64,000 nt of DNA, from NCBI GenBank assembly GCA_046350615.1, contig JAXMAA010000003.1, positions 9,695 to 73,694 on the forward strand, given 5' to 3'. The DNA comes from Candidatus Saccharimonadales bacterium (GTDB lineage: Bacteria; Patescibacteriota; Saccharimonadia; Saccharimonadales; UBA7683). The position numbers and the translations under genes are program-made. Numbering within the stretch: position 1 is the stretch's first letter; the number at the start of each line of letters is the position of its first letter. Positions 14,707-45,645 of the stretch are shown here, one piece after another. The notes under the pieces were generated by a model. It saw nothing but the letters and a program-made list of their open reading frames with translations. It was not told the origin of the DNA and ran no database searches.

Positions 14707-14961
14707 CTATATATGGATAGCGCTCAGATCTACTTTGGCATTCTTAGCCAGTACCTCAATGTATTTCTCCAAACGATCAATTTTATGCTGCATTGCTGCC
14801 ATCTCCACAGCATATGTGTCGATTTTAGCAGCGTAACCATCGATTACGCTTACTAGTCTTTCAATATCTTTTTTATCAGCCTTTTCGTCAAGTTTCTGTT
14901 CGATGATATCAAAGCGATCTTCTATATAGCTGAACAATTTTGTAAACTGATCGTCATCCAT
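14707..14961 (-). CDS. small coiled-coil protein, family member A
   Basis: 84 aa; MDDDQFTKLFSYIED... and KIDRLEKYIEVL; paralog of 45403-45645; TGaTATAAT 7 nt upstream of ATG. Confidence 0.7.
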   Translation of the reverse strand: MDDDQFTKLFSYIEDRFDIIEQKLDEKADKKDIERLVSVIDGYAAKIDTYAVEMAAMQHKIDRLEKYIEVLAKNAKVDLSAIHI

Positions 14962-15014
14962 GCGTTTGATTATATCATTAGACTTTAGTCTCTGCGACTC
15001 TTACATTACAAAAT

Positions 15015-15455
15015 TTAAGATTGTCCGAAAAGCTCGACAACCATTACCGAAATTATATAAAACATACTGGTTGCCAATATAAAGAGCGGTAATATGAAAG
15101 CTGTCCAATTCAGGATCGCCGCTATTCTGTTGCTTGAGATCACAATTGTACTATGATCACCGCATAACCTAGCTGGGGCTTTCGTGTCGAGTGACATATC
15201 GACGGATCTTTCATACCGAAATGGAAAGCCTGGCTCAATAATGTACCTCGCTTTGCCAATGGACATTTTTTCTAACTTCTCACATTGATCAGGGTAGATC
15301 GGAGGTGTCCATCCTATCGGGATTTTGATTGAAAGTTTAGTGAAGCCTACGGTTGAGAATATAGATATTGGTATACTCAGAAAAAGCCAACCGAATGAGA
15401 TTATAAATAGAACAGATGCTTTGCTTTGATTGTCAAGTTTGCGGAAAGGTAGCAT
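15015..15455 (-). CDS. hypothetical membrane protein (2 predicted TM helices)
   Basis: Hydrophobic stretches SVLFIISFGWLFLSIPISIF and AFILPLFILATSMFYIISVMVV. Confidence 0.55.
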   Translation of the reverse strand: MLPFRKLDNQSKASVLFIISFGWLFLSIPISIFSTVGFTKLSIKIPIGWTPPIYPDQCEKLEKMSIGKARYIIEPGFPFRYERSVDMSLDTKAPARLCGDHSTIVISSNRIAAILNWTAFILPLFILATSMFYIISVMVVELFGQS

Positions 15456-15464
15456 GTCTATTGA

Positions 15465-16862
15465 TTAGTAATCTTGGTCGTAGGTGACCATGAGGGCGCG
15501 AGATTCTAGCTGGCGGAGGGTTTCTAGGGCTACGGAGACGACGATGAGGAGTCCGGTGCCGCCAATTGTGAGTTGTGTTGTTCCAAGAATGCGTTCAACA
15601 AATAATGGGAGCAATGCTAGTAAGCCAAGGCTAAGTGCGCCGAATAAATTGAGGCGGCTGACGATCTTTTTTAAATATGTTTCAGTTTGTTCGCCAGGGC
15701 GAATCTTATCTATAAAACCGCCTTGCTTCTGGAGGTTTTCGGCAATTTCTTTTGCATTAAATACCACACTTGTATAGAAGTAAGTGAAAGCAAATATAAG
15801 CAGAAAATAAATAGCTGGATACGCATAAGTATTGATCGGATTATTGCTTAACTGCTGTTGTTGGCCCGGTTGCGCAAACCACACAGTAAGATTGGTTCCA
15901 AGTTCGGCTACCCACGGTTTACTGTTGCTCTTAATTAACTCTCCTACAAATTGAGGCACACTTAAAAAGGCAACTGCAAAGATAATGGGGATGACACCTG
16001 CGGTAATGAGCTTTACGGGTAAGATCGTCCCCACCCCTCCATAGGCTCTGTTGCCTTGCACCCTCTTGGCATAACTCACTTTTATAACTCGCTGAGCCTC
16101 ATTAAGCTTCACTACAAGATATGTAACGATTGCTGTTGCCACAAGAATGGCGGTGGTTATGGCCAAGCCTTTACCACTAATTGGCAACGTAAACCAATTG
16201 AAGACGTTCAGTTTCTGCTGTTCTCCAGTGACGGTTTGCACCAAGGTTGCACCGGTTTTAGGCAATCTTGAAACAATTCCCGCAAAAATAAGCAGGCTAA
16301 TACCATTGCCTATTCCTTGCTCAGTTATAAGCTCTCCGACCCACATAAGGAGCATTGAGCCACCTGTGAGTGTGGCAACCATGAGCACCCACTGGAATAG
16401 TGAGGTATTGCCCGTAATATCAATTCCAAGCGTACCTGCAGCCTGCTGACGAATTAAAAGTATGAGGCCAAAAGATTGCACAATGGCCAACGGTAACGTG
16501 ATAATACGAGTCCATTGGTTGATCTTACGTCTACCAACTTCGCCATCTTGTTGCAACTCCTCAAGCTTTGGGAACGCCTTGGTGAGCAGCTGCATAATGA
16601 TCGAGGCATTAATGTATGGGCCCAAACCCATGAGCATAATTGAGAGGCTTGAAAGGGCGCCACCTGAGAGGAGATCGAAAAATCCAAGTAATTGTTGTGA
16701 GCTAAACAGGTTGTTAATAAGCTGGCGTAACTGAGTTGGTTCTGCAAGCGGAATTGGAATATGTGAAAGCATGCGGTAGGCTACTATTAACAGCACAACT
16801 ATGAGGAGTCGTTTTTGCATATCTCTGCTTTTCAGCGATTGTCGGATTGTCTTCCAGCTCAC
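15465..16862 (-). CDS. secY: preprotein translocase subunit SecY
   Basis: 465 aa, about 10 TM; GLGPYINASIIMQLL and GGTGLLIVVSVALET motifs; follows rplO. Confidence 0.95.
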   Translation of the reverse strand: MSWKTIRQSLKSRDMQKRLLIVVLLIVAYRMLSHIPIPLAEPTQLRQLINNLFSSQQLLGFFDLLSGGALSSLSIMLMGLGPYINASIIMQLLTKAFPKLEELQQDGEVGRRKINQWTRIITLPLAIVQSFGLILLIRQQAAGTLGIDITGNTSLFQWVLMVATLTGGSMLLMWVGELITEQGIGNGISLLIFAGIVSRLPKTGATLVQTVTGEQQKLNVFNWFTLPISGKGLAITTAILVATAIVTYLVVKLNEAQRVIKVSYAKRVQGNRAYGGVGTILPVKLITAGVIPIIFAVAFLSVPQFVGELIKSNSKPWVAELGTNLTVWFAQPGQQQQLSNNPINTYAYPAIYFLLIFAFTYFYTSVVFNAKEIAENLQKQGGFIDKIRPGEQTETYLKKIVSRLNLFGALSLGLLALLPLFVERILGTTQLTIGGTGLLIVVSVALETLRQLESRALMVTYDQDY

Positions 16863-16985
16863 GTTTGTTTCCTTCTCTTGTAATCGTATTACAGTATAAC
16901 AGTAACGATGCTAATCGTCATTACCACTGGCTTGTCGAAAGATCTAATACTGTGATGCTTCGACTGCACGCAGGGCGACGGTTGA

Positions 16986-17453
16986 CTAGGCTTCAGCCTT
17001 AGCTTTCTCGCGCTTTGGTACCTCAGTAACCTCAAAGCTGCCACCACCTTTTTCAATCAGTTCAATTGCAGATTTACTGGCGTTTTGTACACTTACTTTT
17101 AAAGCGCCTTTGACTTCGCCGCGAGTAATAATCTTCACAGCATGGTACGGATTTGCAATTAAACCAGACTCAGCCAGAGTAAAATTATCGATGGTTTTGC
17201 CAGATACAAATTGCAGGTTTTCTGTGTATACAATCTGTGCCTTGGCTCTCGGACTTTTAAAGCCCTTGAGTTTCGGGATACGCATCATCAGTGGATTTTG
17301 ACCACCTTCAAAACCTGGGCGTAGTTTTTTACCAGTTCGCGCTTTTTGACCTTTCGTGCCACGGCCAGCAGTTTTACCTTGACCAGCGCTAATACCGCGG
17401 CCAACACGAGTTTTATTCTGCTTCTTTTGCATATCAAGTTCATGAAACTTCAT
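16986..17453 (-). CDS. rplO: 50S ribosomal protein L15
   Basis: RVGRGISAGQGKTAGRGTKGQKAR glycine-rich N-terminus. Confidence 0.95.
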   Translation of the reverse strand: MKFHELDMQKKQNKTRVGRGISAGQGKTAGRGTKGQKARTGKKLRPGFEGGQNPLMMRIPKLKGFKSPRAKAQIVYTENLQFVSGKTIDNFTLAESGLIANPYHAVKIITRGEVKGALKVSVQNASKSAIELIEKGGGSFEVTEVPKREKAKAEA

Positions 17454-17998
17454 TATTTAGTCTCCTTTGCGACTTTCGTAGCAGCTTTTTTGGTAGGAGC
17501 CTTGGTTTCGGTAGTGGTTGTCCATTCACTCTTCGGTTTTAATTGACCGAGCGCACGTAGGGTTGCGTAGGCAGCATTTACCTTGTTAGAACTCCCGAGT
17601 GACTTCGAGAGTACGTTGTGCACACCAGTGACGTTTAAGATTGCTCGCACAGTACCGCCTGCGATGATACCCGTACCGGGGGCAGCAGGTTTCAGAAGCA
17701 CCTTTGCACCGCCAACTTTTGCATATACGTCATGTGGAATGGTTGTGTTAAAGATTGAGATTTCAATGAGGTTCTTTTTGGCAACTGCAGTTGCTTTAGT
17801 CACCGCAGCTTGCACATCTGCACCCTTACTTACGCCAACACCAACACGCTTTTTGCCATCCCCAACAACTACCAGCGCTTTAAAGCGGAAGCGACGGCCA
17901 CCTTTTACCACACGAGCAACACGGTCGATGTTGATGACTACCTCTTCAAATTCTTTTACCTCTTCAACCTGAGGCTGACGGGAACGATTCTCTGCCAT
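17453..17998 (-). CDS. rpsE: 30S ribosomal protein S5 with Lys/Thr/Ala-rich tail (start at internal ATG 17998)
   Basis: VINIDRVARVVKGGRRFRFKALVVVGDG; ATG 17998 lies just after the rplR stop; ORF-track extension overlaps rplR. Confidence 0.93.
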   Translation of the reverse strand: MAENRSRQPQVEEVKEFEEVVINIDRVARVVKGGRRFRFKALVVVGDGKKRVGVGVSKGADVQAAVTKATAVAKKNLIEISIFNTTIPHDVYAKVGGAKVLLKPAAPGTGIIAGGTVRAILNVTGVHNVLSKSLGSSNKVNAAYATLRALGQLKPKSEWTTTTETKAPTKKAATKVAKETK

Positions 17999-17999
17999 A

Positions 18000-18356
18000 T
18001 TAGAACTCCAATCCATTCTCTCTTGCAGCTGTGGCAAGTGCATTAAGGCGTGCTTGGTACGCACGACCATTTCTATCCATCACAACTTTTGTAATTTTGG
18101 CTTTCACTGCTTTTTTTGCGATCTCGGTACCTACAAAAGTGCATTGCTCAGTTAAAGAATTTTCAGCTGCTTTACTCTGTACGGTTGTCGCCGATACTAA
18201 AGTGTTGCCAGTTGAGTCATCTATAATTTGAGCGCTCACATGGCGATTGCTGATATGCACGCTGAGTCTCGGTCGTTCAGTAGTTCCGCTCACCACGCTT
18301 CGTACGCGATTTTTGCGGATAACTTTGTTTGCTCGTTTATGATCAAGACGGTTCAT
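18000..18356 (-). CDS. rplR: 50S ribosomal protein L18
   Basis: RPRLSVHISNRHVSAQIIDD, DRNGRAYQARLNALATAARENGLEF. Confidence 0.95.
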   Translation of the reverse strand: MNRLDHKRANKVIRKNRVRSVVSGTTERPRLSVHISNRHVSAQIIDDSTGNTLVSATTVQSKAAENSLTEQCTFVGTEIAKKAVKAKITKVVMDRNGRAYQARLNALATAARENGLEF

Positions 18357-18892
18357 TATTTTGCTCCTGTCTTTCCGGCCTTGCGGATAATGTATTCACC
18401 TTCGTACTTAATCCCCTTGCCCTTGTAGGGCTCTGGTTTTTTAAGTTTGCGAATGTCTGCAGCAACTTGGCCAACTTGCTGCTTATTGATACCACTTACC
18501 GAGATATTCATTTTATCAACGGCTAGAGTGATGCCTTCTGGCGCAATAAAATCAATTGGGTGTGAAAAACCGAGGTTCAGCACTAGTTTATTGCCCTGCA
18601 GTGCTACTTTAAAACCAACACCGTTAACCTCAAGCTTCTTCTCAAAGCCTTTTGTAACACCCTCAACCATGTTGTTGATAAGAGCGCGCATTAAGCCGTG
18701 TTGAGCTTTGGCAGGTTTGTCATCACTTTTTCTGGTGACAGTTAATACGTTTTCACTAATTGCAACTTCTACGTGCGGTAGCTGGGTAGTCTCAAGGTTA
18801 CCTTTGGGACCGGTAACTTTGATTACGCCGCCATCGACCGTGATTGTCACGCCAGCAGGAATTTCTACTGGTAGTTTTCCGATTCGACTCAT
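18356..18892 (-). CDS. rplF: 50S ribosomal protein L6
   Basis: MSRIGKLPVEIPAGV, PEPYKGKGIKYEGE. Confidence 0.95.
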   Translation of the reverse strand: MSRIGKLPVEIPAGVTITVDGGVIKVTGPKGNLETTQLPHVEVAISENVLTVTRKSDDKPAKAQHGLMRALINNMVEGVTKGFEKKLEVNGVGFKVALQGNKLVLNLGFSHPIDFIAPEGITLAVDKMNISVSGINKQQVGQVAADIRKLKKPEPYKGKGIKYEGEYIIRKAGKTGAK

Positions 18893-18915
18893 AGTTTTAT
18901 ACCTTATTACTTTCT

Positions 18916-19329
18916 TTAATATACTTTACAAATTACTTCACCACCAAGGCGTTGTTTGCTGGCCTCAAAGCCGTTCATAACACCTTTACTGGTAGAGATT
19001 AGAACTAAACCACGACCACTTTTAACTCGAGGGATGTCTTTTACACTCGTATAGAATCTTCGACCTGGCGTGCTTACGCGTACGATTTCGGTAAAGCGCG
19101 GGTTCTGACCCTCTTCGTTAATCGCGATTACAATTTCACTCCGAGGAGTGCCTGCTTCAACGGTTACGTTTTTCAAGAAGCCGTTTTTAGCAAGTTCTTT
19201 TGCGATAGTTTCTTTAATTTTTGAATGCGGTACACGTACCTCGTGCTTGTTGACGCTAGCGGCGTTACGAATACGAGTGAGCATATCTGCAATTGGGTCT
19301 GTTGATACCATACTCATACTCCTTACCAA
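18916..19329 (-). CDS. rpsH: 30S ribosomal protein S8 (true start may be an internal Met at 19317 or 19311)
   Basis: [22 protein letters not shown]. Confidence 0.93.
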
Positions 19330-19592
19330 CTTGCCTTTGTTACGCCAGGGATCTCACCCTTGCTGGCATGATTTCTAAATGCAACACGGCTCAAGCCAAA
19401 CGTGCGCATAAAGCCACGTGGTCGGCCGGTTTCACCACAACGGTTTTTAAGCCTTGTTGGCGAGGAATTGCGCGGAAGTTTGGCTAATCCTTCAAGATCA
19501 CCGATCTTTTTGAGCTCGGCTCGCTTTGCAGCAAATTTTTCGTTCATCTTGTGACGCTTTAAGTCGCGTGCGATAGCAGATTTCTTAGCCAT
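19323..19592 (-). CDS. rpsN: 30S ribosomal protein S14, long form without CxxC zinc motif
   Basis: 89 aa; [23 protein letters not shown]...GVTKASW. Confidence 0.93.
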
Positions 19593-20182
19593 TACTTGCT
19601 CTCCTTTTGGGTTGTCTTTTCAAACGGTAGGCCGAAACCTTCTAGCAAAGCGCGGGAATTTTCAGGATTGCTACCACTAACTACAAAGTTAATCTGCAGA
19701 CCATGGAGCTGTGAGATGTCCTCAAACGTAAGCTCTGGAAAAACTGACTGCTCGGTGAGGCCAAGGCTGTAGTTACCTTTAGGGTCAAAGGCTTTAGCAC
19801 TGATACCATGAAAATCGCGTACACGAGGGAGAACGATATTAGTAAGTCGGTCGAGGAATTCGTACATCTTATCACCGCGAAGCGTTACCTTCATGCCGAT
19901 GGTATTCATGCCAGCGCGAATTTTAAAGCTCGCGATAGATTTTTTAGCAATTACCTCAACTGGCTGCTGACCAGTAATTTTACGTAGCGTGCCGCGAACA
20001 ATTTCGAACATGTGTTTGTCATCTTTACTGCGGCCGAGACCAACATTAATCACAATTTTCTCTAAGCTGGGAACTTCGTGAATGTTGTTTAGACCCAAGC
20101 TTTCCTTCAACTCGGCTGCAAGGCTCTGCTGAAACTGTAGCTTCAGACGTGGTGTGGTTACCACACTCGTATCTTTGCTCAT
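19592..20182 (-). CDS. rplE: 50S ribosomal protein L5
   Basis: [28 protein letters not shown]. Confidence 0.95.
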
Positions 20183-20496
20183 ACATCAATCTCCTTATTG
20201 GTCTTTTTGAATATGCGAACTTTGCTACCATCCTTCTTTGTTGTGTAGCCAACTCGGCTGGTGGCATTTTTTTTACCAGTTTGCAGCAGCGCTACCTTGC
20301 TGGCATCAATTGCAATGTGCTTATCAACAATACCGCCTTGGGGTTGTAGCATATTTGGCTTTACATGTCGTTTTACGACGTTGAGACCTTCAATTTTAAC
20401 GCCATTTGTTCGAGGAGAAACGGCAACAACTTTACCCGATTGGCCTTTTAGGCTGCCAGCAATAACTTTAACCTGGTCACCTTTTTTCAGTTTCAT
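20179..20496 (-). CDS. rplX: 50S ribosomal protein L24
   Basis: [26 protein letters not shown] motif. Confidence 0.95.
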   Translation of the reverse strand: MKLKKGDQVKVIAGSLKGQSGKVVAVSPRTNGVKIEGLNVVKRHVKPNMLQPQGGIVDKHIAIDASKVALLQTGKKNATSRVGYTTKKDGSKVRIFKKTNKEIDV

Positions 20497-20864
20497 TATA
20501 GAACCTCCGGTGCCAAGCTAATGATTTTTGTATATCCCATATCGCGAAGCTCGCGTGGAACTGGACCGAAAATGCGGGTTGCTTTGGGCAACTTTTCATC
20601 GCCTAGAATAACTGCTGCATTTTCATCAAACTTGATGGTGGAGCCATCTTTACGACGGATGGTATTAGTAGTACGTACTACAACGGCCTTCACAACCGAT
20701 TTCTTCTTAACATTACCGGTTGGGTTAGCCTCTTTTACAGTGGCCACGATAACATCGCCAACGCCCGCATAGCGTTTACGGCTACCGCCAAGTACGCGAA
20801 TACAAAGAATCTCCTTTGCACCACTGTTATCTGCTACCTTTAATCGAGATTCTTGCTGGATCAT
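20496..20864 (-). CDS. rplN: 50S ribosomal protein L14
   Basis: [27 protein letters not shown]. Confidence 0.97.
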
Positions 20865-21127
20865 GCAACCACCTCTTCAGCAGCACCTTCTTTTCGTTCA
20901 ATGACTGCCTCAAGTTTGAATGTCTTGTTTTTGCTTACCGGGCGAGTTTCAACGATTGAAACTTTATCACCAAGCTGCGCCTCGTTCTTTTCATCGTGAG
21001 CTTGGTACTTTTTGCTCACCGTATACTGTTTGCGGTAAATAGGGTGCGTAACACGTCGTTCAGTTTTGACGACGATAGTTTTGTCTTGCACGTCTGATAC
21101 CACTATACCAATTAACTTTCTCGACAT
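20861..21127 (-). CDS. rpsQ: 30S ribosomal protein S17
   Basis: [27 protein letters not shown]. Confidence 0.95.
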
Positions 21128-21128
21128 A

Positions 21129-21341
21129 TTACTTTTCCTCTCCGCTCAGTGCCGTTCGAATGGTTTTAGCACGAGCAATACTCTTCTTGATTGCACCTAA
21201 TTGGTGAGTCTTGGTTTCTTTGTTGGTGTTGAGGGCATGCGTAAGCTCTTGGTAGGATGTTTGGAGCTCAGCTATATAAGCACTAATTTCCGCATCTTTT
21301 TTGGTGCGCAGGTCTTTAACACTCAGGAGCTTAATTTTCAT
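21129..21341 (-). CDS. rpmC: 50S ribosomal protein L29
   Basis: 70 aa helical protein, KKSIARAKTI; between rplP and rpsQ. Confidence 0.9.
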   Translation of the reverse strand: MKIKLLSVKDLRTKKDAEISAYIAELQTSYQELTHALNTNKETKTHQLGAIKKSIARAKTIRTALSGEEK

Positions 21342-21757
21342 TATGCTTGCTCCTTTACAACAAACTTGGTTTTTACTGGTAGCTTGTGCGCCGCTAAACG
21401 CATAGCTTCACGAGCTTGCTCTTCAGTAACGCCACGGCCCATCTCAAACAAAACAGTGCCTGGCTTTACTTTAGCTACAAAGAACTCCGGATTACCTTTG
21501 CCGCTACCCATCTTTACATCTTGTGGCTTACGGGTTACTGGTGTGTGTGGGAAAATTCGGATCCATACCTTACCGCCACGTTTGATGTAGCGAGTCATTG
21601 CCTGACGTGCAGACTCGATCTGGCGGGAGGTGATGCGTCCGGCATCTTGACTTACTAGACCGTAATCACCAAAAGCAACATAGTGGCCGCTGGTAGCAAC
21701 ACCGTTGATTTTGCCTTTACGAACTTTTCTAAATTTAGTCTTCTTTGGTAACAGCAT
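21341..21757 (-). CDS. rplP: 50S ribosomal protein L16 (start at ATG 21757, TAATG overlap with rpsC stop)
   Basis: [15 protein letters not shown]..., [10 protein letters not shown]-type block ([12 protein letters not shown]). Confidence 0.95.
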
Positions 21758-22389
21758 TATTGTACCTCGCCTTTGTAGATCCACACCTTCACACCAATGA
21801 TACCAGCGCCTGGATACTTGGCACGTGCTGCATGATAATCAATATCTGCTCGAAGTGTGTGAAGCGGTACACTGCCTTCAATATGCTTTTCTCGGCGGCT
21901 CATTTCGGCACCTTGCAATCGTCCGGCAACTTCAATGCGAATACCTTTTGCTCCGGCTCGCATTGTTGCGGCAGCGGTAGATTTAACAGCTCGGCGGAAT
22001 GCAATACGGCGCTCTAATTGACGGGCAATATTTTCAGCCACCAGTTTAGCAGCTAGCTCTGGTCGTTTAACTTCCTCAATATTGACTCGCACTGTGGTTT
22101 GTAAGATTTTCTCACATAATGCTTTGATTTCTTGTGCGCCAACACCGCCGCGACCAATGACTACACCGGCTTTGCTGGTGTGAATGGTAACAGTTACGAG
22201 GTTTGGCGAACGTTCGATATCAATTCGGTCAATTACTGCTCGGGTTTCAAACTTCTTTTCGATCTCTCTTCGTACTTGGATGTCTTGACTTAGGAAACTT
22301 GCGTATTCCTTCTTGCCAGCAAACCATTTACTGCGCCACTGCTTATTAACCTGAAGGCGCATGCTAATAGGATTAACTTTCTGACCCAT
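21757..22389 (-). CDS. rpsC: 30S ribosomal protein S3
   Basis: [14 protein letters not shown] domain, [12 protein letters not shown]. Confidence 0.95.
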
Positions 22390-22790
22390 TACTTGCTCTC
22401 CTTCTTAGTTGTTTTAGTAGTGGACTTGGTTGTGGTTGGCTTTTTAGCCTTTTCAGCGCCGGAAACAATAACAGTAACGTGCGTAGTTCGTTTTTGATAC
22501 GGGTGAGCCGAACCACGAGCCACTGGGCGAAAACGCTTCATACGAGGTCCTGGACTAACATTAAGCGTATCAATAACGAGGTCATCACCTTTGGCATTGT
22601 GATTGTGTGTAGCATTTGCCTGAGCGCTTTTGATCACCTTGATAATAGGTAATGCGGCACGGCGTGGTGTGTGTTCTAAGATAACCAAAGCGTCGGTAAC
22701 ACTACGGCCGCGAACAAGGTTGGCTACTTCACCAACTTTGCGTGGTGTCATAGCAAGGCCTTTAGCTTGTGCTTTTACGTATACAGCCAT
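22389..22790 (-). CDS. rplV: 50S ribosomal protein L22 with Lys/Thr-rich tail
   Basis: PRKVGEVANLVRGRSVTDAL, RFRPVARGSAHPYQKRTTH. Confidence 0.95.
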   Translation of the reverse strand: MAVYVKAQAKGLAMTPRKVGEVANLVRGRSVTDALVILEHTPRRAALPIIKVIKSAQANATHNHNAKGDDLVIDTLNVSPGPRMKRFRPVARGSAHPYQKRTTHVTVIVSGAEKAKKPTTTKSTTKTTKKESK

Positions 22791-22792
22791 GA

Positions 22793-23056
22793 TTACTTAT
22801 CCTTACCACCGTGTTTACGGAACTTGCGGGTTGGACTAAATTCACCAAGTTTATGACCAACCATGTTTTCGCTTACAAATACTGGCACGTGGACCTTGCC
22901 GTTATGTACTGCAATTGTGCGACCAACAAATTCTGGGGCAATCGTGCTGGCACGTGCCCATGTTTTAATAACGGTGCGATCATCTTGACCAAGAGCTGCT
23001 ATTTTTTTAGCGAGCTTCGGGTCTACAAATGGTCCTTTTTTAAGTGATCTAGACAT
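22793..23056 (-). CDS. rpsS: 30S ribosomal protein S19 (start at ATG 23056)
   Basis: [12 protein letters not shown]...; GGGGAGAGG SD directly upstream; ORF-track N-terminal extension rejected. Confidence 0.95.
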
Positions 23057-23384
23057 CCTCTCCCCTTCTATTTGTAAGTTCTGAAATAATTTGTGTATCG
23101 CGAGCATCGTTGAAAAGAGCGTTCAGTATGTCATATTCTTCTTGCCCATGTAAATCGGAACCCGTAGTTAAATCAAAGTCTCTCGATAATTGTCTTCGAT
23201 AACCCATTAGACCTATGCGCTCTAAATCAGTAAGCTCTGGATCTAAAACCGTTAAATCTCCTGATAGTCGTCCTAACGAACGTGCTGTTCTGTGATTAAG
23301 CTGTGCGTTTGTAGCAAACTTAGCTTTTTGGAATTCAGCATCATGCGCTTCTTTGAATGTGGGTATGCGTAAATCAACAGCCAT
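23049..23384 (-). CDS. hypothetical 111-aa protein inserted between rplB and rpsS
   Basis: ATG 1 nt after rplB stop with GAGGAAATAAT SD; its last codons (RRGEDV*) contain the rpsS SD and start; no recognisable motif. Confidence 0.65.
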
Positions 23385-23385
23385 A

Positions 23386-25182: not shown

Positions 25183-25183
25183 A

Positions 25184-25957: not shown

Positions 25958-25972
25958 GTGTTTCTACTAAAA

Positions 25973-34556: not shown

Positions 34557-34584
34557 TGTCATTCCCGCGAAGGCGGGAATGACA
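34557..34584. other. perfect 12-bp stem-loop 10 nt downstream of rpoC
   Basis: TGTCATTCCCGC-GAAG-GCGGGAATGACA; no adjacent U-tract. Confidence 0.5.
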
Positions 34585-34594
34585 ACGTGAATGT

Positions 34595-37500: not shown

Positions 37501-38395
37501 GCAAGATACTGACGCACATGCTGCCCGGGTCAACTCCGGCGCTTTGCATGCCTTCAAGCATCTTAAGTCGCTTCATAAGCTTCTTTTTGCGCTGACCCTT
37601 CGCTCCTTCAACTTCCTCACCAAGTTCGGCAATTAATGCGTCGAGCTTAATTTCATCAAGCAATTTCTGTAGTGCCATACCTCCCATACCAACCTCAGCA
37701 ATATCTTGATACTCATCAGGCATTGCCCGATAGTCAGTTTCAGAGATAAGACCGGCCTTAGAAAGAGAATCGAGCTGCTGTTTTTTAGTGAGATATTGGC
37801 TTGTAACTTCATCTATTTCTTTGCTCTGAGCCTCCGCAAGTGCCTTAATATCGGCGCCTTCAACTTCTGCCTCTTTTTCCATACGTGCTTTGATTGCAAC
37901 TTTGGCTGCCTCAAGCTCAGCCTCGGCATCTGCCAAAAGCTGTTCTTTTTTAGTTTCATCAACCGAGATAATCACATAGGAAGCAAAGTACACAATTCGT
38001 TCAAGGTTCTTAACCGTAATGTTAAGCAACAGGCCAATTGGGCTCGGCGTGCCACGTAGAAACCAGATATGAGCAACTGGCGCTGCCAAGCTAATGTGCC
38101 CCATGCGTTCTCGGCGAACAATTGATTTAGTAACGAGCTCTCCATTTTTATCAACAGCAGCCTCGCGCGAGCGAACCCCTTTGTATTTTGCATCGTGTGG
38201 ATTGATATCTTTAACTGGGCCAAAAATGCGTTCACAGAATAGACCATCACGCTCAGGTTTTTGAGTACGATAGTTGATGGTTTCTGGTTTTGTGACTTCG
38301 CCGTAACTCCAGTCGAGAACATCACTTGGGCTCGCAACAACAAGTCGCACTGCGTCGAAATCAGTTATTGTGGTAGTGAATAAACCTGGTCTCAT
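34595..38395 (-). CDS. rpoC: DNA-directed RNA polymerase subunit beta-prime
   Basis: 1266 aa; [12 protein letters not shown] catalytic motif. Confidence 0.98.
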
Positions 38396-38396
38396 A

Positions 38397-41300
38397 CTAC
38401 GCCTCCTCTTCTACCTCGGGCGTTGCCGCGAGATCATCATCTTGGTTATCGTCGGTTGTAAGCGGGTCGTCTGTGGCTACATCGGAGGTGCCAGTGTCAT
38501 CAAGTACTTCGAATTCACTTGCCACCATTTCTTCAGTCACGTCCATTGGTGTCATCTGTTCAGCGGTTACTTCCGGAAGATTCTTGGCCTCTTCCGCCAC
38601 TGTTGCCTCAAGTACCGCCTCGGCATCAACTTCCGTACCATTCTCGTTGATCAGGTCAACTCGCAAGCTTAGGCCCTGAAGCTCTTTTACAAGCACGTTG
38701 AAGCTCTCTGGAATCTTTGGCCCAACAATTGGCTCCTGCTTAATGATGCTCTCGTAGGCCTTAGAACGACCGTACACATCATCAGACTTAAGTGTTAGCA
38801 TCTCTTGTAGCGTATTGGCAGCGCCATATGCTTCGAGTGCCCAAACTTCCATCTCTCCAAAGCGTTGACCACCGTTTTGTGCCTTACCACCAAGTGGCTG
38901 TTGAGTGACCATAGTGTATGGGCCAATACTTCGTGCGTGAATTTTATCTGCAACCATGTGGTGCAGCTTAATAATGTGCATCACGCCAACTGAAACACGT
39001 TCTTTAAAGTACTCACCGGTACGGCCGTCAATAAGCTCCTGCTTGCCATCTTCAGGTAAGCCAGCTTTTTTAAGCTCAGCTTTAATTGCCTCAACGGGCA
39101 CACCGTTAAAGGCAGGGGTTGCAACCTTATAGCCAAGTGCTCTTGCCGCCATGCCAAGGTGGGTCTCGAATAATTGTCCGATGTTCATACGTGATGGCAC
39201 ACCAAGCGGATTCAAAACAATGTCAACCGGAGTCCCATCTTCCATAAACGGCATGTCTTCTTCAGGCATGATCCGTGCAATAACACCCTTGTTACCATGA
39301 CGTCCTGCTAATTTATCGCCGACTGCGATTTTACGCATTTGTGCAACAAAAACCTGTACTTGCATTAACACGCCAGCCTTCAAATCGTGGCCATTGGCAC
39401 GACTGAATATTTTTACGCCAACCACTTTACCGTGCTTGCCGTTGCTCATTCGCTGCGAAGTGTCTCTCACGTCTTTCGCTTTTTCACCAAAGATTGCACG
39501 GAGTAGGCGTTCCTCACTAGAAAGCTCTTGTTCACCTTTTGGTGTAATTTTACCCACTAATATGTCACCTGCTTTCACTTCGGCGCCTATGCGCACAATA
39601 CCGTTTTCATCAAGATGACGAAGACTTTCTTCCGACACATTTGGAATATCTCGCGTGACAATTTCAGGGCCAAGCTTAGTTTCACGCACCTCAACCATGT
39701 AATCTGTGATGTGCACAGAGGTGAGCTCATCATCTTCAACAAGTCGGCGCGAAATGACAATCGAGTCTTCAAAGTTGTAGCCATTCCATGGCATAAATGC
39801 AACCACAAGGTCTTTTCCGAGAGCCAGCTCGCCGTCTTCCACACTCATACCTTCAATAAGTACGTCACCGGCTTTAACGGCATCGCCAGTGCTCACAACA
39901 ACCTTTTGGTTCATGCTTGAACCTTCATTGGTGCGAACGAAGTGCTGTGGACGGTAGGTTTTAGAAGTTTTTTCGTACTTCACAACAACCTCATTACCGT
40001 CAGCTTTTGTTACCGTACCAGCACCTTCGGCGTAGATAACCTGGCCGCTGTTTGCGGCAACTACTACTTCCATACCGGTACCTACTACTGGAGCTTTCGT
40101 TTTGATCAGCGGCACGGCCTGCTTTTGCTGGTTTGATGCAATTAAGGCACGTCCCACGGCGTCTTTCTCCGCAAATGGAATAAGCGAGGCGGTTGAACCC
40201 AAAATTTGATTACGGGCGGCATCCATGTGAGTTACTAGTTCGGCATCAACTTCCTCAGGCTGAAGTTTCACACGAGCCGAAACACGTTCATCTTCGAATG
40301 AGCCATCACTCTTCAGTTCCAAACCAGCCGAAGCGATTACAGCTCGCTTTTCTTCATCAGAATCAAGATACACGACCTCTTTTGTCACCTTACTATTTTT
40401 CACTACGCGGTAAGGCGTTTCAATAAAGCCATATTCATTTACACGTGCGTGTGATCCGAGATTAAGCACTAAACCAATATTGGCACCTTCAGGCGTTTCT
40501 ACCGTACAAAGACGACCGTAGTGAGTTGCGTGTGCGTCACGAACCTCAAAGCCAGCACGCTCTCGCGAAAGACCGCCAGGGCCCATTGAGCTCAGGCGAC
40601 GTTTGTGTGCAAGTTCAGAAAGCGGGTTTGTTTGATCCATAAACTGTGAAAGCTGTGATGAAGCAAAGAATTCACGAACCGCTGCCACAATAGGTCGAGC
40701 GTTAATAAGCTGTGCTGGAGTAACTGTTTCAATTTCAGACATACTCATGCGATCTTTAGCGTTGCGCTCCATTCGTAGCAAGCCAATGCGGAACTGTCGC
40801 TGTACGAGCTCGCCTACCAACTTCACTCGGCGATTTGCAAGGCTATCAATGTCATCTGGTGCTTCCTGCGTGTTATTCAAACGAATGATTTCTTTTACAA
40901 TTGCAACAAGATCATCAAGGCGCATAACCCGATTCTCAGCCGTATTTGCAACATCAATATCAAGTCGTTTGTTCATTTTATAGCGACCAACTCGTGAAAG
41001 ATCAAAGCGCTTGAAGTTAAAGAAGACGTTTTCAATCAAGCTACGTGCGTTATCAACTGTTGCCAGATCTCCAGGACGAATACGGCGATACACTTCAATC
41101 AGCGCATCGCTTCCACCCTTGCTTGGATCTTTCGCAATAGTTGCATCGAGATAGTTTATTTCACCGGTATCAACATCTTTAAACAAGTCTTTGAGTTGTG
41201 CATTCTGCGAGTAACCAAGTGCTCGAAGCAGTGTCGTTACGGTAAGCTTGCGGCGACGGTCGATTTTTACATAAATTGCACCATTTGCAGCAGTTTCAAA

Positions 41301-41828
41301 TTCAAGCCAGGCACCGCGACCCGGAATTAACTTAGCACCATAGAGGTTGCGACCACCATTTTGTTCGGCAGTAAAGAAGATACCAGGGCTGCGAATTAAC
41401 TGACTGACAACCACACGTTCAGCGCCATTGATCACAAAAGTACCTCGCGATGTCATCCATGGGTAGTCACCAAGATAGATCTCTTGCTCTTTTACTTCAC
41501 CGGTAACTTTATTGGTCAATTCCAGATTTGCATACAATGGAGCCTCGAAGCTTACATTATTCTCGCGCGCTTCAAGCTCATCCATTTTTGGATCACCAAA
41601 GTGATACTCCTTAAATCTCAACTCAATCTTGGTACCCGTGTAGTCCTCAATTGGGTTAATTTCTGCAAAAATCTCTCCTAGTGCCTCTTGCACAAACGTT
41701 TGAAAAGACTTGGTCTGGTGCTCAATCAAATTTGGGATAGAGAGCGCATCGTCTGATTTTGTAAAATACACTCGCTTGTTCGTTGCTGCTTTGTCAGTTT
41801 TGGTTTTGCTTGTTTGCGTGGTCGCCAT
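38397..41828 (-). CDS. rpoB: DNA-directed RNA polymerase subunit beta, acidic C-terminal tail
   Basis: 1143 aa; GRHGNKGV, GGQRFGEMEVWALEAYGA; AAGGAG SD. Confidence 0.98.
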   Translation of the reverse strand: MATTQTSKTKTDKAATNKRVYFTKSDDALSIPNLIEHQTKSFQTFVQEALGEIFAEINPIEDYTGTKIELRFKEYHFGDPKMDELEARENNVSFEAPLYANLELTNKVTGEVKEQEIYLGDYPWMTSRGTFVINGAERVVVSQLIRSPGIFFTAEQNGGRNLYGAKLIPGRGAWLEFETAANGAIYVKIDRRRKLTVTTLLRALGYSQNAQLKDLFKDVDTGEINYLDATIAKDPSKGGSDALIEVYRRIRPGDLATVDNARSLIENVFFNFKRFDLSRVGRYKMNKRLDIDVANTAENRVMRLDDLVAIVKEIIRLNNTQEAPDDIDSLANRRVKLVGELVQRQFRIGLLRMERNAKDRMSMSEIETVTPAQLINARPIVAAVREFFASSQLSQFMDQTNPLSELAHKRRLSSMGPGGLSRERAGFEVRDAHATHYGRLCTVETPEGANIGLVLNLGSHARVNEYGFIETPYRVVKNSKVTKEVVYLDSDEEKRAVIASAGLELKSDGSFEDERVSARVKLQPEEVDAELVTHMDAARNQILGSTASLIPFAEKDAVGRALIASNQQKQAVPLIKTKAPVVGTGMEVVVAANSGQVIYAEGAGTVTKADGNEVVVKYEKTSKTYRPQHFVRTNEGSSMNQKVVVSTGDAVKAGDVLIEGMSVEDGELALGKDLVVAFMPWNGYNFEDSIVISRRLVEDDELTSVHITDYMVEVRETKLGPEIVTRDIPNVSEESLRHLDENGIVRIGAEVKAGDILVGKITPKGEQELSSEERLLRAIFGEKAKDVRDTSQRMSNGKHGKVVGVKIFSRANGHDLKAGVLMQVQVFVAQMRKIAVGDKLAGRHGNKGVIARIMPEEDMPFMEDGTPVDIVLNPLGVPSRMNIGQLFETHLGMAARALGYKVATPAFNGVPVEAIKAELKKAGLPEDGKQELIDGRTGEYFKERVSVGVMHIIKLHHMVADKIHARSIGPYTMVTQQPLGGKAQNGGQRFGEMEVWALEAYGAANTLQEMLTLKSDDVYGRSKAYESIIKQEPIVGPKIPESFNVLVKELQGLSLRVDLINENGTEVDAEAVLEATVAEEAKNLPEVTAEQMTPMDVTEEMVASEFEVLDDTGTSDVATDDPLTTDDNQDDDLAATPEVEEEA

Positions 41829-42127
41829 AAACAGCCTGCTCCTTGTTTAACCAACACAACTGATTTTCATAATACTCAAATGCCACTCTGGCAACTCCAG
41901 AGCGCTAAACCCTACACGTTAATTTGTTTGCGTGAGTGTGAGTATAATCAAAACGTAAATGCGCCGTTTCTTGTTTGATTAGATTTAGTGATCTTTAAAG
42001 AAGTCACCCTAAGCCGGTTCCAATCTAAAGAATAGATTGATGATTTACTACCGTGCACCAACAGTAAATCAAGGGCTTTACTACCTCTATGGGTACCATT
42101 CTGACCGAGTCAAAACAAAATGTCAAG

Positions 42128-42778
42128 CTACATCGGGTGAACTTCAACAGGATAATGCAGCTCCGCGTAGCACCCTGCCGTCTGCGCAACATCACCTGCT
42201 TGTGCCACATACAGCTGCCGCTTAGCCGAAACACCATCACCAACCTCGTACATTTCAGGTGTTCCCACGGCGCTCATCCCAATATGTGCCAGCCAGTGTA
42301 CAGAAGGTGCATTATCTGGCCGTGCCACGGTCCAGAGTGTACGATTCGGGTTAACCAATTGATCAAATTCAGAACTAATGCGTGTAGCAACGCCCTGATT
42401 ACGATGGTCAGAACCGAGCCACACCGCAAAGTTAACACCATCATGAGTCTCAGGCACATCATACATCCCACCAGGCACTAAAGTCAGCATGCCAATAGGT
42501 TGCGATAGAGAACAAGGGACACCTACATATGTAGAACCCTTTACTACAACACGAGCAATCGGCCGGATAGCCCGCATCCTACGGGCAACCGACAACAAAC
42601 TTTGATTGTATCTGTCGACCACATACGGAAAGTCACCACCTATGCTCGCGGCGTTTTCCCTCACCAATGCTCTCACGCCCCTAGCGTGTTGCACTCCCGG
42701 TACAACTAAGTCCACGAAATCAGTTTGATCAACTTCCTCTGTTCTTTCATCCACAAATTCACGTAACGTTATCGCCAT
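42128..42778 (-). CDS. hypothetical protein, possible GNAT-type acetyltransferase
   Basis: VWLGSDHRNQGVATRISSEF resembles GNAT motif A (R/Q-x-x-G-x-G/A); weak call. Confidence 0.45.
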   Translation of the reverse strand: MAITLREFVDERTEEVDQTDFVDLVVPGVQHARGVRALVRENAASIGGDFPYVVDRYNQSLLSVARRMRAIRPIARVVVKGSTYVGVPCSLSQPIGMLTLVPGGMYDVPETHDGVNFAVWLGSDHRNQGVATRISSEFDQLVNPNRTLWTVARPDNAPSVHWLAHIGMSAVGTPEMYEVGDGVSAKRQLYVAQAGDVAQTAGCYAELHYPVEVHPM

Positions 42779-42784
42779 ATTCGC

Positions 42785-43369
42785 CTACTTTGCCGGTTTA
42801 GATACAATCGTATCTACCAGTCCATACTGTACCGCTTCATCGGCAGTAATCCAGAAATCCCGTTCCATATCTTCGTGAATCTTCTTTACTGTTTGTCCAG
42901 TGTTCTTGGCCATAATCTCTTCCAGCAAACGCTTTACTCGAAGTGATTCACGCAGATCGATTTCTTGATCGGTCACTTTACCTCTCGTGCCACTAGAAGG
43001 CTGATGTATCATGACTGTGGCATTAGGAAGCAAAAAGCGTTTACCTTTGGCGCCAGAACTGAGTAAAAATGCAGCCGCCGAGGCTTGTACGCCAATACCA
43101 AACGTTTGCACATCGTTACCAATAAATTGCATGGTGTCATATATCGCAAGAGCATCATACACACTGCCACCTGGGCTGTTAATATAGAGGTAGATGTCTT
43201 TTTTCGGATCTTCACTCTGTAAAAAAAGTAGTTGCGCCACAATCAAGCCAGCCGTGTGTTCATTAACTTCATCGTGAAGAAAGATAATACGCTCACGCAA
43301 CAGTCGGCTATAGATGTCAAAAGCGCGTTCTCCTTGACCTGATGGTTCGATAACAGTAGGAACTAACAT
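42785..43369 (-). CDS. clpP: ATP-dependent Clp protease proteolytic subunit (start at ATG 43369)
   Basis: [35 protein letters not shown] (Ser), MIHQP (His). Confidence 0.95.
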
Positions 43370-43386
43370 AATTCCATTATAGCAAT

Positions 43387-43413
43387 TTAGCACTCAAAAC
43401 ACAAGAGTGCTAA
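43387..43413. promoter_or_regulatory. CIRCE inverted repeat (HrcA operator), perfect consensus, 18 nt upstream of clpP
   Basis: TTAGCACTC-AAAACACAA-GAGTGCTAA equals TTAGCACTC-N9-GAGTGCTAA. Confidence 0.8.
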
Positions 43414-43454
43414 ACACTATTGCTTAAACTTGACTGATGTGATATAATAAAAGT

Positions 43455-43850
43455 ATGGATACATCGCAGGCCGTGAAGCGTAAGGTGGTTGAGCTGACTT
43501 TTTCGCGTGATTTTGAAGCCTTGCTATTAGGGCATCCCACTCCTCATACCTCGTTGACACACGATCTTGAGCTGGCAATTGAGCGTGGTCTGCAACGGTT
43601 GATTGAGCTTGAAGATGTGCGAGAGTTGCAGCATCAGAGTCTCATCACCCATTTAGTGGCGCAGACGAATCTGTATCAAGCAATGGAAAGTGAGTATTTT
43701 GACCACTGGAAGATCGCAGTCTCAGAAGACTTGCTTGATGAAGTTGATTTGCTACTTTTAAGTCACGGCAAGGATCTCGTTAAACTCGGTTTATTTGCCG
43801 AAACGACTGCTGCTACATTACTCATGTTGGCCGTTGCAGGATTGCGATAA
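43455..43850 (+). CDS. hypothetical 131-aa protein
   Basis: TTGCTT-17-TGaTATAAT promoter ending 6 nt before the ATG; no motif recognised. Confidence 0.55.
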   Translation: MDTSQAVKRKVVELTFSRDFEALLLGHPTPHTSLTHDLELAIERGLQRLIELEDVRELQHQSLITHLVAQTNLYQAMESEYFDHWKIAVSEDLLDEVDLLLLSHGKDLVKLGLFAETTAATLLMLAVAGLR

Positions 43851-44066
43851 GCCGCGATCACGACGAATAATCGGCCACAACTTTGTCGTAAGTGCTGTTA
43901 ATGTAAATCCACCAGAAAGAGCATTTCTGCCAAGATTTGAGATAGTAGTATCAAATTGCACCATAACAGCGCAACCCAGTTCTGTCGCTGCATTGCAGAC
44001 TCTCTGATTCTTTGTCAGGCCTAAGAGATCCGTAGCACCTTCTCGAAGCATCTCTCGCAGTGCCAT
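43818..44066 (-). CDS. possible small protein (82 aa) downstream of tig
   Basis: Starts 4 nt after the tig stop; many G-initial codons in my hand translation; overlaps the 3' end of the convergent 43455 gene by 33 nt. Confidence 0.35.
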   Translation of the reverse strand: MALREMLREGATDLLGLTKNQRVCNAATELGCAVMVQFDTTISNLGRNALSGGFTLTALTTKLWPIIRRDRGLSQSCNGQHE

Positions 44067-44072
44067 GCAACC

Positions 44073-45359
44073 CTACTTTGAGCTGACAGCCAGCAAATAA
44101 AGTCGATCAACAGTCTTTTCAGTAAGTAGTCTTGAGGCAACCTCACGACGCATATCTGGTGTATCAAATTGTGCGGCAGATTGCTGGTATTGCTGTTTAT
44201 AAAGCTCAATCCTCTGAGCAAGTTCGGCATCATCCACCGAAAGGTTCTCCTTTTCAGCCACTTCAGCCAGGACCATACCAACCGAAACTCGGCGCTCGGC
44301 CTGTTCCTTCAGCTCTTTCGCCTTCCATTCGGCCTCGTCTTTAAAACCGGCTTGCTTGATATATTCTTGCTTCGTAATTCCACGATATACAAGATTTTGA
44401 TTAAAATCATGCTCTAGCATCGCAACCTGATCGTTCACCAGTATCTCGGGAAGTGGAAACTTTGATTTCTTAACCAATTCTTTAACAATCTCATCCTTAA
44501 TTTTGTTGATCGCCTCAGACTCCTTCTGTTCGAGTAGCTGCGCCTTTACATCGCTCTTCAGATCCGCCAATGTCTTGAACGGACCAACACTTGCCGCAAA
44601 CGCGTCATCAATTTTTGGTAATTCAGAAACTTGCACATTCTTAACTGTCACCGAAAAAACAATGTCGGTGCCGGCTAGATTCTTAGCATGATAATCTTTA
44701 GGAAATACTAACTTCAGCTCCTTTTTATCATCCTTTTTTACGCCAACCAACCCTTCTTCAAAACCAGGAATAAAGCTTTTGCTCCCAAGGCTTAGTCGAT
44801 AGTCTACTCCGCTTGCCCCAGCAACCTTTGCGCCACTTTCATTGGTACCTTCAAAATCTATAACAACATCATCGCCGTTCTTCGCCGGCTTATCACTATC
44901 CTTCTTTGAAGCACTTCGGCTCGCTAGATTTTGCAGCACTTCATCGATATCTTTTGCCGTGACGGTCGATTTTGGAGCAGTTTTTTTAATCTTCTTGTAA
45001 TCGCCCAGCTTTACAGCTGGCATAACTTCTACCTCAGCAGTAAACTCAAGCTCTGTGTATGGCACAAATTTGCCGATCTCAATCTCAGGTAGATTTAAGG
45101 TTCGCAGCTTTTGTTCATCAAGTGCATTACCGTAGAAATCGTTGATTGCGTGATTAATAACACTCGCTTGCAGTTGATTTTGATCAAGCTGTTTTTCAAC
45201 AACGCTCAGCGGCGCCTTGCCTTGACGGAAACCCGCAACCTTCATTTTTTTTGCCTGCACCTGAAGCTCATGCTGTTTGGCATGTGTCAGCTCCTCAAGG
45301 CCCAGGATGATAGTTAGTTTTACTTTTGTCTCTGAAATGTCTTTACGTGATACTTGCAT
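44073..45359 (-). CDS. tig: trigger factor
   Basis: 428 aa; FRQGKAPLSVVEK ribosome-binding motif (GFRxGxxP type); central FKBP-like segment. Confidence 0.9.
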   Translation of the reverse strand: MQVSRKDISETKVKLTIILGLEELTHAKQHELQVQAKKMKVAGFRQGKAPLSVVEKQLDQNQLQASVINHAINDFYGNALDEQKLRTLNLPEIEIGKFVPYTELEFTAEVEVMPAVKLGDYKKIKKTAPKSTVTAKDIDEVLQNLASRSASKKDSDKPAKNGDDVVIDFEGTNESGAKVAGASGVDYRLSLGSKSFIPGFEEGLVGVKKDDKKELKLVFPKDYHAKNLAGTDIVFSVTVKNVQVSELPKIDDAFAASVGPFKTLADLKSDVKAQLLEQKESEAINKIKDEIVKELVKKSKFPLPEILVNDQVAMLEHDFNQNLVYRGITKQEYIKQAGFKDEAEWKAKELKEQAERRVSVGMVLAEVAEKENLSVDDAELAQRIELYKQQYQQSAAQFDTPDMRREVASRLLTEKTVDRLYLLAVSSK

Positions 45360-45402
45360 AAGATGCCATTATGCCATAACAGATTACAAATTACCACTCC
45401 TG

Positions 45403-45645
45403 CTAGAGATTCTCTAAAGGGATGCCGGTTTTTTCTGAAACCTTACGTGCCCAGGCGAGCAGTTTCTCAAATTGACTGTCGCGCGCCAACATCTCTGTCT
45501 CGTGATCATCAAGTCTCTTTGCAAACTTATCAAGAGTATTGGTTAGACGATCTATCTTTGCATCAAAATCGTCCATTCGCTGATTCACTTCAGAACGAAA
45601 TTCCTCAATATACGCAAATAGTTTCGTGAATTGCTCGTCATTCAT
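45403..45645 (-). CDS. small coiled-coil protein, family member B
   Basis: 80 aa; MNDEQFTKLFAYIEE..., KIDRL; colinear with member A; TGtTACAAT 6 nt upstream of ATG. Confidence 0.7.
   Translation of the reverse strand: MNDEQFTKLFAYIEEFRSEVNQRMDDFDAKIDRLTNTLDKFAKRLDDHETEMLARDSQFEKLLAWARKVSEKTGIPLENL

Follow-up and report, generated by a model that had tools for sequence, protein, structure and literature searches.

The window analysed here is a stretch of 64,000 nucleotides (nt) from a Candidatus Saccharimonadales bacterium (GenBank assembly GCA_046350615.1, contig JAXMAA010000003.1, positions 9,695 to 73,694 of the forward strand). It contains two small genes, A and B, which lie between housekeeping genes and whose predicted products are short coiled-coil proteins. 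Their sequences identify A and B as true, old paralogues of a multi-copy family to which no function has been assigned. The family is uncharacterised and so far known only from Saccharibacteria. The overall reading favoured here, with modest confidence, is that the family consists of self-expressing coiled-coil modules, that these spread via recombination at tRNA-Gln genes, and that A and B are fixed copies. A sequence-only reading of the window had described the two genes as paralogues inserted as autonomous units between housekeeping genes. This initial observation is largely correct and its interpretation partly supported; the apparently leaderless design of the genes and the tRNA-Gln cassettes found in relatives extend it. 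Throughout the text, L-numbers denote loci (DNA stretches) of relatives, and P-numbers denote proteins of relatives.

The gene family and its proteins

The products of A and B can be aligned end to end with 30% identity (BLASTP E=5e-14, composition-corrected). Profiles built from the homologues of A and from those of B recover each other at E=1e-17 to 5e-18 among the 1,140 six-frame open reading frames (ORFs) of the window, and no window ORF besides A and B falls below E=0.03 with either profile. The likeness extends beyond the heptads, since the proteins share the N-terminal motif M-x-D-[DE]-Q-F-T-K-L-F-x-Y, the invariant aligned columns D39, E51 and L62, and the nearly invariant columns D46, K72 and G74 (B numbering). 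The homology originally proposed for the pair is thus borne out. B is a 100% match of an NCBI protein annotated as hypothetical, from a metagenome-assembled genome of Candidatus Saccharimonadales.

A word-index search retrieved 53 homologues of A (49-81% identity) and 441 of B. With a joint A+B profile, 1,121 clusters (counted at 50% identity) were found at E<=1e-3 and 247 at E<=1e-10 among 1.84 billion representatives searched, and every named record of the family belongs to Saccharibacteria. Pairs of B-type genes have a protein identity of 93-95%, compared with 82-88% for their DNA, and a ratio of nonsynonymous to synonymous substitution rates (dN/dS) of 0.01-0.04. The family is under strong purifying selection, and because of this low dN/dS the ORFs of the A/B family are regarded as real genes. 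The view that the similarity reflects coiled-coil composition only, and that the ORFs are not genes, is refuted and retains virtually no probability. Heptad-rich, low-complexity sequences with many weak matches to unrelated coiled-coil families would suit it. It is contradicted by the composition-corrected E value, by the shared non-repetitive motif M-x-D-D-Q-F-T-K-L-F with the invariant D39, E51 and L62, by the hundreds of homologues, and by the dN/dS values.

Three C-terminal subtypes are distinguished: the B-type, ending in ...WARKVSEKTGIPLENL; the A-type, ending in ...EMAAMQHKIDRLEKYIQVLAxKAGVDLDAIH; and a third type, ending in ...ARDHKIDRLERWIEQIAKKTGVKLEY. Longer variants of 87-190 amino acids (aa) carry extra N-terminal runs of near-perfect heptads, for example six copies of RFESIDS. 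Three A-type genes (L012:4797-5237, L008:4773-5219 and L006:4333-4755) contain 4-6 tandem, near-perfect seven-residue repeats (RFESIDS, QRFESID, DRFEKID) before the core, so that the length of the coiled coil varies by whole heptads between genomes. Two unusual proteins match parts of the family sequence. P0047 (L011:4872-5162) joins, in one reading frame, the C-terminal half of an A-type protein and an MmeI_N fragment (Pfam, 30 bits) from the N-terminus of an MmeI-type restriction enzyme; probably, an insertion made it a chimera or a pseudogene. P0189, a giant Cys-rich protein of 3,925 aa encoded on a 1.73-Mb contig, has 12 separate matches to the N-terminal two-thirds of the family profile (E=5e-23), probably a repeat-level coiled-coil similarity.

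The description of a multi-copy gene family without an assignable function also holds. A match to a well-characterised domain was looked for, and no Pfam, NCBIfam, PHROG or PADLOC model reached its cut-off for the family, with sub-threshold matches of coiled-coil type only. Profile searches found no related PDB sequence. Foldseek returned nothing at E<=0.001 against the PDB, a search for which a single helix is uninformative. Literature searches yielded no paper describing the family, nor any on tRNA-Gln cassettes of Saccharibacteria.

Two more distant members had been proposed at 48.5-49.1 kb. These ORFs, C and D, were rejected as family members by profile tests (hidden Markov model (HMM) E values of 0.04-2.5; hhalign probabilities against the family profile in Table 1) and are other small helical ORFs instead. 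ORF D (95 aa, helical) is a conserved gene of a separate small family, with a 47%-identical ortholog in L003 (662-949). L097 and L101 have ORFs of 94-95 aa at a comparable place upstream of hisS, position alone having been compared with ORF D.

The AlphaFold model of B, based on a 117-sequence alignment, is one uninterrupted helix spanning residues 3-73, with a mean predicted local distance difference test score (pLDDT) of 95. The helical hairpin considered in the sequence-only reading is therefore not what is predicted for B. The model of A (pLDDT 79) contains helices 3-25 and 30-75, interrupted briefly at the two-residue insertion of A. Column hydrophobicity follows an unbroken a/d register from residue 6 to ~70, with a dominant 3.5-residue periodicity. 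The isoelectric point (pI) is 4.8, the family median is 5.0, and no hydrophobic run of >=17 residues, that is, no membrane-spanning stretch, occurs in the family proteins. The models and composition thus describe acidic, cytoplasmic proteins of ~80 residues, each predicted to be essentially one 70-residue amphipathic helix. Because a lone 70-residue amphipathic helix is unstable by itself, an oligomeric coiled coil is expected, and we infer a homo- or hetero-oligomeric rod ~10 nm long.

Promoters abutting the start codons

Each of the two genes has its own extended -10 promoter (TGnTAnAAT) immediately before its ATG (Table 1). No usable -35 element accompanies the boxes, and no Shine-Dalgarno site precedes A or B. 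The promoter of B overlaps the last three hisS codons (M-L-Q) and the stop codon, and the B start lies 4 nt past this stop. The same arrangement recurs across the family. The -10 hexamer ends exactly 6 nt from the ATG in 49 of 77 family genes, and all A-type orthologs checked have the same promoter-ATG arrangement. The -10 signal is found in 69% of family genes, compared with 23% of control ORFs from the same loci and 9% of window genes. When the TG extension is included, the corresponding values are 61%, 9% and 4%. Shine-Dalgarno-like sequences show the reverse tendency, preceding 8% of family genes and 49% of window genes. The box that had been noticed 6-7 nt from the ATG is consequently confirmed not only for A (7 nt) and B (6 nt) but as a property of the family.

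In bacteria, leaderless genes carry a characteristic TANNNT signature with its first T located ~12 bp upstream of the start codon (PMC3160421). The family shows this signature, with the first T of the hexamer at -12 and the Shine-Dalgarno sequence absent. Judging from these sequence features, the mRNAs of A and B are probably leaderless, with transcription starting at or beside the ATG. The gene thus appears to be packaged to work anywhere, having a promoter right next to its start codon and no need of a ribosome-binding site. Such a design would explain how copies can wedge into conserved gene arrays.

The 3' side of the genes is different. No intrinsic terminator was found after A or B with a simple scan for sigma-70 promoters and terminators, which also missed these -35-less promoters. 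Because no terminator follows, A and B are self-sufficient at the promoter end only, and read-through into infA and tig is possible. The term "autonomous units" therefore applies to their promoters and not to their 3' ends.

Two further observations concern the promoter regions. A -10-like box also precedes tig, both in the window (TGGCATAAT, positions 45360-45376, minus strand, 8 nt before the ATG) and in the four relatives read (TGnnATAAT in L097, L098 and L100; GGTATACT in L099), and these boxes end 8-9 nt before the ATG in every genome whose junction was read. Because tig has such boxes as well, leaderless or near-leaderless expression may be wider than this small family. In L017, L019, L023, L025 and L026, a conserved GC-rich hairpin (AAAGACyTCTTCGGrAGTCTTTT) is located directly upstream of the B-type promoters, ~20-45 nt upstream of the ATG. 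Several of these are 82-aa B-type genes with differing neighbours, and the hairpin could be either a terminator of the upstream gene or a part of the module.

Insertion sites and tRNA-Gln cassettes

The positions given earlier for both genes were found to be correct: A lies between secY and infA, with an extra 146-aa ORF between secY and A; B lies between hisS and tig; and all are on the minus strand. In the closest relative, represented by a 226-kb JGI contig, A and B are found where they are in the window (secY-148aa-A-infA and hisS-B-tig-clpP). Genomes with a hisS identity as low as 61% still have the array hisS-tig-clpP-(variable gene)-rpoB. The junction between hisS and tig contains no gene (37-65 nt) in L101, L098, the P0420 locus, L097 and L099, and in L100 it holds an unrelated Cys-rich 103-aa ORF (2522-2833), so that six relatives have no family gene there. 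In a neighbour-joining tree of hisS, the two B-carrying genomes (the window and L003) are sisters, and a single gain of B is consequently the simplest history. Only in these two genomes does hisS end in ...MLQ*, encoded by ATG-yTA-CAA-TAA, which is at the same time the TGyTACAAT promoter of B. In genomes with an empty junction, hisS has unrelated ending residues after the shared ...IVK. Because the MLQ* end coincides with the B promoter and differs elsewhere, it appears that the B module replaced the last hisS codons. These junction sequences identify B as a lineage-specific insertion into a conserved array. A B-type gene lies between clpP and rpoB instead in the metagenome locus L073. The clpP-rpoB junction holds a different gene in each genome, and the junctions of the array repeatedly take in small genes.

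Table 1. Positions of genes A and B, their promoters and motifs, and neighbouring or compared ORFs in the window.
Feature	Position	Strand	Description
Gene A	14707..14961	-	ORF, 84 aa, acidic (pI 4.8), predicted coiled coil, A-type subfamily
A extended -10 promoter	14969..14977	-	TGATATAAT; ends 7 nt before ATG; TATAAT at -13 to -8
A-type core motif			IDGYAAKxDTYAxEMAAMQHKIDRLEKYI
Gene B	45403..45645	-	ORF, 80 aa, acidic, predicted coiled coil, B-type subfamily
B extended -10 promoter	45652..45660	-	TGTTACAAT; ends 6 nt before ATG; TACAAT at -12 to -7
B-type C-terminus			Near-invariant; ARDSQFEKLLxWARKVSEKTGIPLENL
C-terminal 25 residues of B			ARDSQFEKLLAWARKVSEKTGIPLENL
infA	14423-14644	-	Downstream side of A
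146-aa ORF	15015..15455	-	Between secY and A; predicted membrane protein, outside the family; L001 ortholog with 48% identity; no Pfam match
secY	15465-16862	-	Upstream side of A
tig (trigger factor)	44073..45359	-	Downstream neighbour of B
hisS	45650..46954	-	Upstream neighbour of B; left insertion junction in its 3' end
ORF C	48532..48777	-	Proposed distant member, not supported (HMM E=0.16-2.5; hhalign probability 0.6%)
ORF D	48816..49103	+	Proposed distant member, not supported (HMM E=0.04-0.08; hhalign probability 1.85%)

In other Saccharibacteria, the family is located at many different sites, in agreement with the placement idea of the sequence-only reading. A-type genes are found between rplO and secY (L008, L015), directly after smpB (L014, L016), after the RNase Y gene rny (L005), after the exonuclease III gene xth (L006, L009) and after gltX (L012). 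For the B-type, the 103 immediate neighbours at 80 metagenome loci belong to 73 Pfam families, none of them a recurrent partner, and include transporters, Fic/Doc toxins and reductases. B-type genes that are 85-95% identical to each other have non-homologous neighbours. A conserved partner gene was rejected on the grounds of these heterogeneous neighbours. A toxin-antitoxin module, which would consist of two adjacent, co-conserved small genes, was rejected as well: there is no recurrent neighbour, and the cassettes hold one gene. Near two of these positions, further observations were made. The surroundings of secY differ in gene content among L008, L015 and the window, indicating a variable spot within the ribosomal gene cluster, and adk and map, the usual followers of secY, are absent downstream of it in the window. 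A reverse-transcriptase-like ORF (L016:1176-2138; weak RVT_1 match) is located ~4 kb from the A-type gene after smpB.

The same sites allow a different explanation, in which family genes are co-transcribed with and translationally coupled to the upstream gene (hisS, smpB, secY, gltX or rny) and play a role in translation or protein biogenesis, for example in association with the ribosome or translocon. The genes are co-oriented with short gaps (4 nt after hisS, 8-24 nt after smpB, 16 nt after gltX and 32 nt after rny), and no terminator separates the family gene from the next gene. This explanation is nevertheless improbable given the diversity of neighbours without a conserved partner, the usually empty hisS-tig junction, and the presence of an own promoter on each copy.

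The evidence on how copies may spread comes from sister subfamilies in relatives. Many long-variant genes are preceded by the sequence TGGCTGGGGnnGAGGGATTCGAACC. Read as its reverse complement, this sequence corresponds to the T-arm, acceptor strand and CCA of a tRNA and ends in ...CCAGCCA, like tRNA-Gln. In L068, a 43-nt direct repeat, identical over its last 31 nt, is present in copies 410 nt apart. The second copy forms the 3' end of an intact tRNA-Gln (ARAGORN, Rfam), and exactly one 91-aa family gene lies between the copies. In L018, an 82-aa B-type gene with 62% identity to B lies between an intact tRNA-Gln and a 25-nt repeat of the 3' end of that tRNA gene, the two being 379 nt apart. 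In L035, three copies spaced 354 and 321 nt apart are interleaved with two family genes. L043/L044, L083 and L084/L087 show repeat flanks more weakly; L043 and L044 sample one sequence twice, as do L084 and L087. Repeats bracket one-gene cassettes of 320-420 bp at five distinct loci.

Using an nhmmer model of the fragment, a tRNA-Gln or a fragment of it was detected within ~200 nt of 28 of 82 family genes, and on both sides, in some cases weakly, of 10 of 82. T-arm-like matches between -38 and -64 on the right strand were seen ~17 times, compared with ~0.2 expected by chance according to the estimate made in this analysis. Across unrelated contexts, the DNA homology of the cassettes starts at -63 to -71, where the fragment has its CCA end, and ends between the stop codon and ~+75 (up to ~+100 in one pair). 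L068 and L077, for example, are 75% identical over 439 nt, exactly from fragment to fragment. Fragment-plus-gene modules are also found away from any tRNA, for instance after rsgA and before adk. The fragments are not confined to family genes: in longer arrays (L037:717-7747 and L087:1769-5319), they separate modules containing Doc/AbrB and RelE/YefM toxin-antitoxin pairs, ABC transporters, a TetR regulator and a coiled-coil gene, and a module of fragment, Doc and AbrB is shared by the two arrays, flanked by other genes in each.

Direct repeats of a tRNA 3' end are the scar of site-specific integration into a tRNA gene. Because the observed pattern corresponds to such a scar, spread via recombination at the tRNA-Gln 3' end is the likeliest route. 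Another reading takes the element, whose TGG... is complementary to the 3' end of tRNA-Gln, for a primer-binding site like that of a retroelement. It was set aside for three reasons: the repeat pairs are completed by intact tRNA-Gln genes, the gene occurs in either orientation relative to the tRNA (L018 versus L068), and the predicted transcript starts only downstream of the element.

Several points weigh against the interpretation as spreading modules. The window contains no tRNA-Gln fragment (nhmmer model, E<=1) and no tRNA-Gln gene, only tRNA-Thr, tRNA-Tyr and tRNA-Leu. Neither A nor B is flanked by a tRNA 3' end, and no tRNA-like or other terminal repeats surround them. Both genes are also syntenic with the nearest relative. 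No integrase is present among the 25 commonest families listed for the 66 ORFs of 19 tRNA-Gln loci, most of which are on short contigs, or among ten large ORFs scanned singly. The tRNA fragments could be scars of larger, decayed elements with the family gene as a frequent passenger. For B, the 4-nt gap to the hisS stop codon offers translational coupling as an alternative to a leaderless start. Finally, the single-helix AlphaFold model says little about function, and both the oligomer and a binding partner are putative.

Consequently, recent mobility of the A and B copies themselves is not supported. The earlier idea of insertion and mobility stands in so far as B is lineage-specific and the family occupies many sites; it does not stand for recent movement of A and B, which lack flanking repeats and are fixed in the closest relative. 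Fixation at identical positions in all relatives was likewise found only in part, namely in the closest relative, while the hisS-tig junction of six others has no family gene.

The main rival explanation is vertical inheritance, in which the positions of the paralogues result from old duplication, rearrangement and differential loss, and the tRNA-Gln scars stem from unrelated elements. It accounts for A and B taken alone, with their synteny and absence of repeats, and it agrees with the failure to find an integrase at the tRNA-Gln loci scanned, with purifying selection as strong as in host genes, and with the 54 of 82 related genes that have no fragment nearby. It is nevertheless considered unlikely. 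Exactly one family gene is bracketed by repeats at the five distinct loci, of which L068, L018 and L035 are among the strongest; where contexts are unrelated, the homology of the cassettes sets in exactly at the CCA end of the fragment; and tRNA fragments are enriched far above chance. In addition, six relatives lack a family gene between hisS and tig, and B-type genes with 85-95% identity to each other have non-homologous neighbours.

A further explanation would regard the genes as remnants or cargo ("morons") of phages or plasmids of Saccharibacteria. Repeats of tRNA 3' ends are typical of prophage integration, and there is a weak, sub-threshold likeness to coiled-coil families of phages, among them DUF2730 and XhlA- and BhlA-like PHROGs. 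This origin is very improbable in view of the databases searched: no relative was found in IMG/VR viral contigs (patterns of the B-type and third type), no relative of A or B in 50,697 GenBank phages (INPHARED), and no relative of B in 72,556 plasmids (PLSDB). The neighbourhoods contain no phage genes either.

In the favoured reading of spreading modules, a module would consist of an extended -10 promoter abutting the ATG and one gene for a coiled coil of ~80 residues, translated without a leader. Because it would need nothing from its surroundings, it could work wherever it landed. Cassettes would move by recombination at the tRNA-Gln 3' end, with the recombinase presumably supplied in trans. 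B would have been acquired, at the 3' end of hisS, by the ancestor that this genome shares with one sister lineage. A and B may derive from such modules and would now be scar-free, fixed copies under purifying selection. As for the protein, its most likely role would be that of a coiled-coil scaffold or adaptor binding a conserved partner by way of its near-invariant C-terminal 25-45 residues.

A more far-reaching proposal can be made only tentatively, and it is possible rather than probable. The cassette, comprising a tRNA-Gln 3' end, a promoter and a leaderless gene within 320-420 bp, might be an undescribed minimal mobile unit. Its target would be tRNA-Gln, where it would build up integron-like arrays along with other cassettes, those for toxin-antitoxin pairs included; occasionally it would enter a housekeeping gene at the 3' end. 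On this view, A and B would be domesticated copies whose product is useful or addictive to the cell.

Significance and comparison with known systems

The genomes of Saccharibacteria are tiny and highly syntenic, and much of their content is unannotated; this widespread family under selection, probably with several copies per genome, is part of that content. Should the one-gene tRNA-Gln cassettes prove truly mobile, they would rank with the smallest known mobile units that encode a protein and would offer a handle on gene-content change in these epibiotic bacteria.

At the protein level, the best-scoring curated family is DUF16 (PF01519) of Mycoplasma pneumoniae. Like the present family, it comprises small helical coiled coils with many paralogues in a reduced genome and without a known function. 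The long variant P0140 reaches 35.7 bits (E=1.2e-8) against a gathering score of 40 bits, and A and B reach 14.4 bits each. It is chiefly the repetitive N-terminal heptads of the long variants that match, rather than the conserved C-terminal core, and the taxa differ. DUF16 is not known to occur in tRNA-linked cassettes. Scores against DUF2730 (PF10805) also remain below the gathering score of 24.9 bits, at 14.6 bits for A and 22.7 bits for P0013. ZapB-type proteins (~80 aa, one long self-assembling helix) have the same size and the same predicted architecture. The resemblance is one of shape only: no ZapB sequence match is listed at E<=10, although HMMER filters leave few matches above ~E 0.1. 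The gammaproteobacterial ZapB also differs in being single-copy.

At the level of the cassettes, the closest parallels are tRNA-targeting integrative elements and their integrase-less, cis-mobilisable derivatives. As in the cassettes of relatives, direct repeats of the tRNA 3' end flank the insert, one repeat copy completes an intact tRNA gene (here tRNA-Gln), and tandem, repeat-bounded arrays occur. Unlike these elements, the modules are only 320-420 bp long and carry one small gene, with no integrase found nearby; moreover, some modules lie away from any tRNA, and A and B have no repeats. Integron cassettes likewise form arrays of short one-gene units with a recombination-site-like repeat, and toxin-antitoxin genes are mixed in, as in L035, L037 and L087. 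In contrast to integron cassettes, the present units have their own promoter and the tRNA-Gln 3' end instead of an attC hairpin, and no IntI-type integrase or attI was seen.

With respect to predicted expression, the family resembles bacterial leaderless genes in its sequence, with the same position of the box and no Shine-Dalgarno sequence. Compared with leaderless genes generally, the signal is in this case a family trait (69% of family genes versus 9-23% of window genes and control ORFs), and the TG extension is nearly always part of it.

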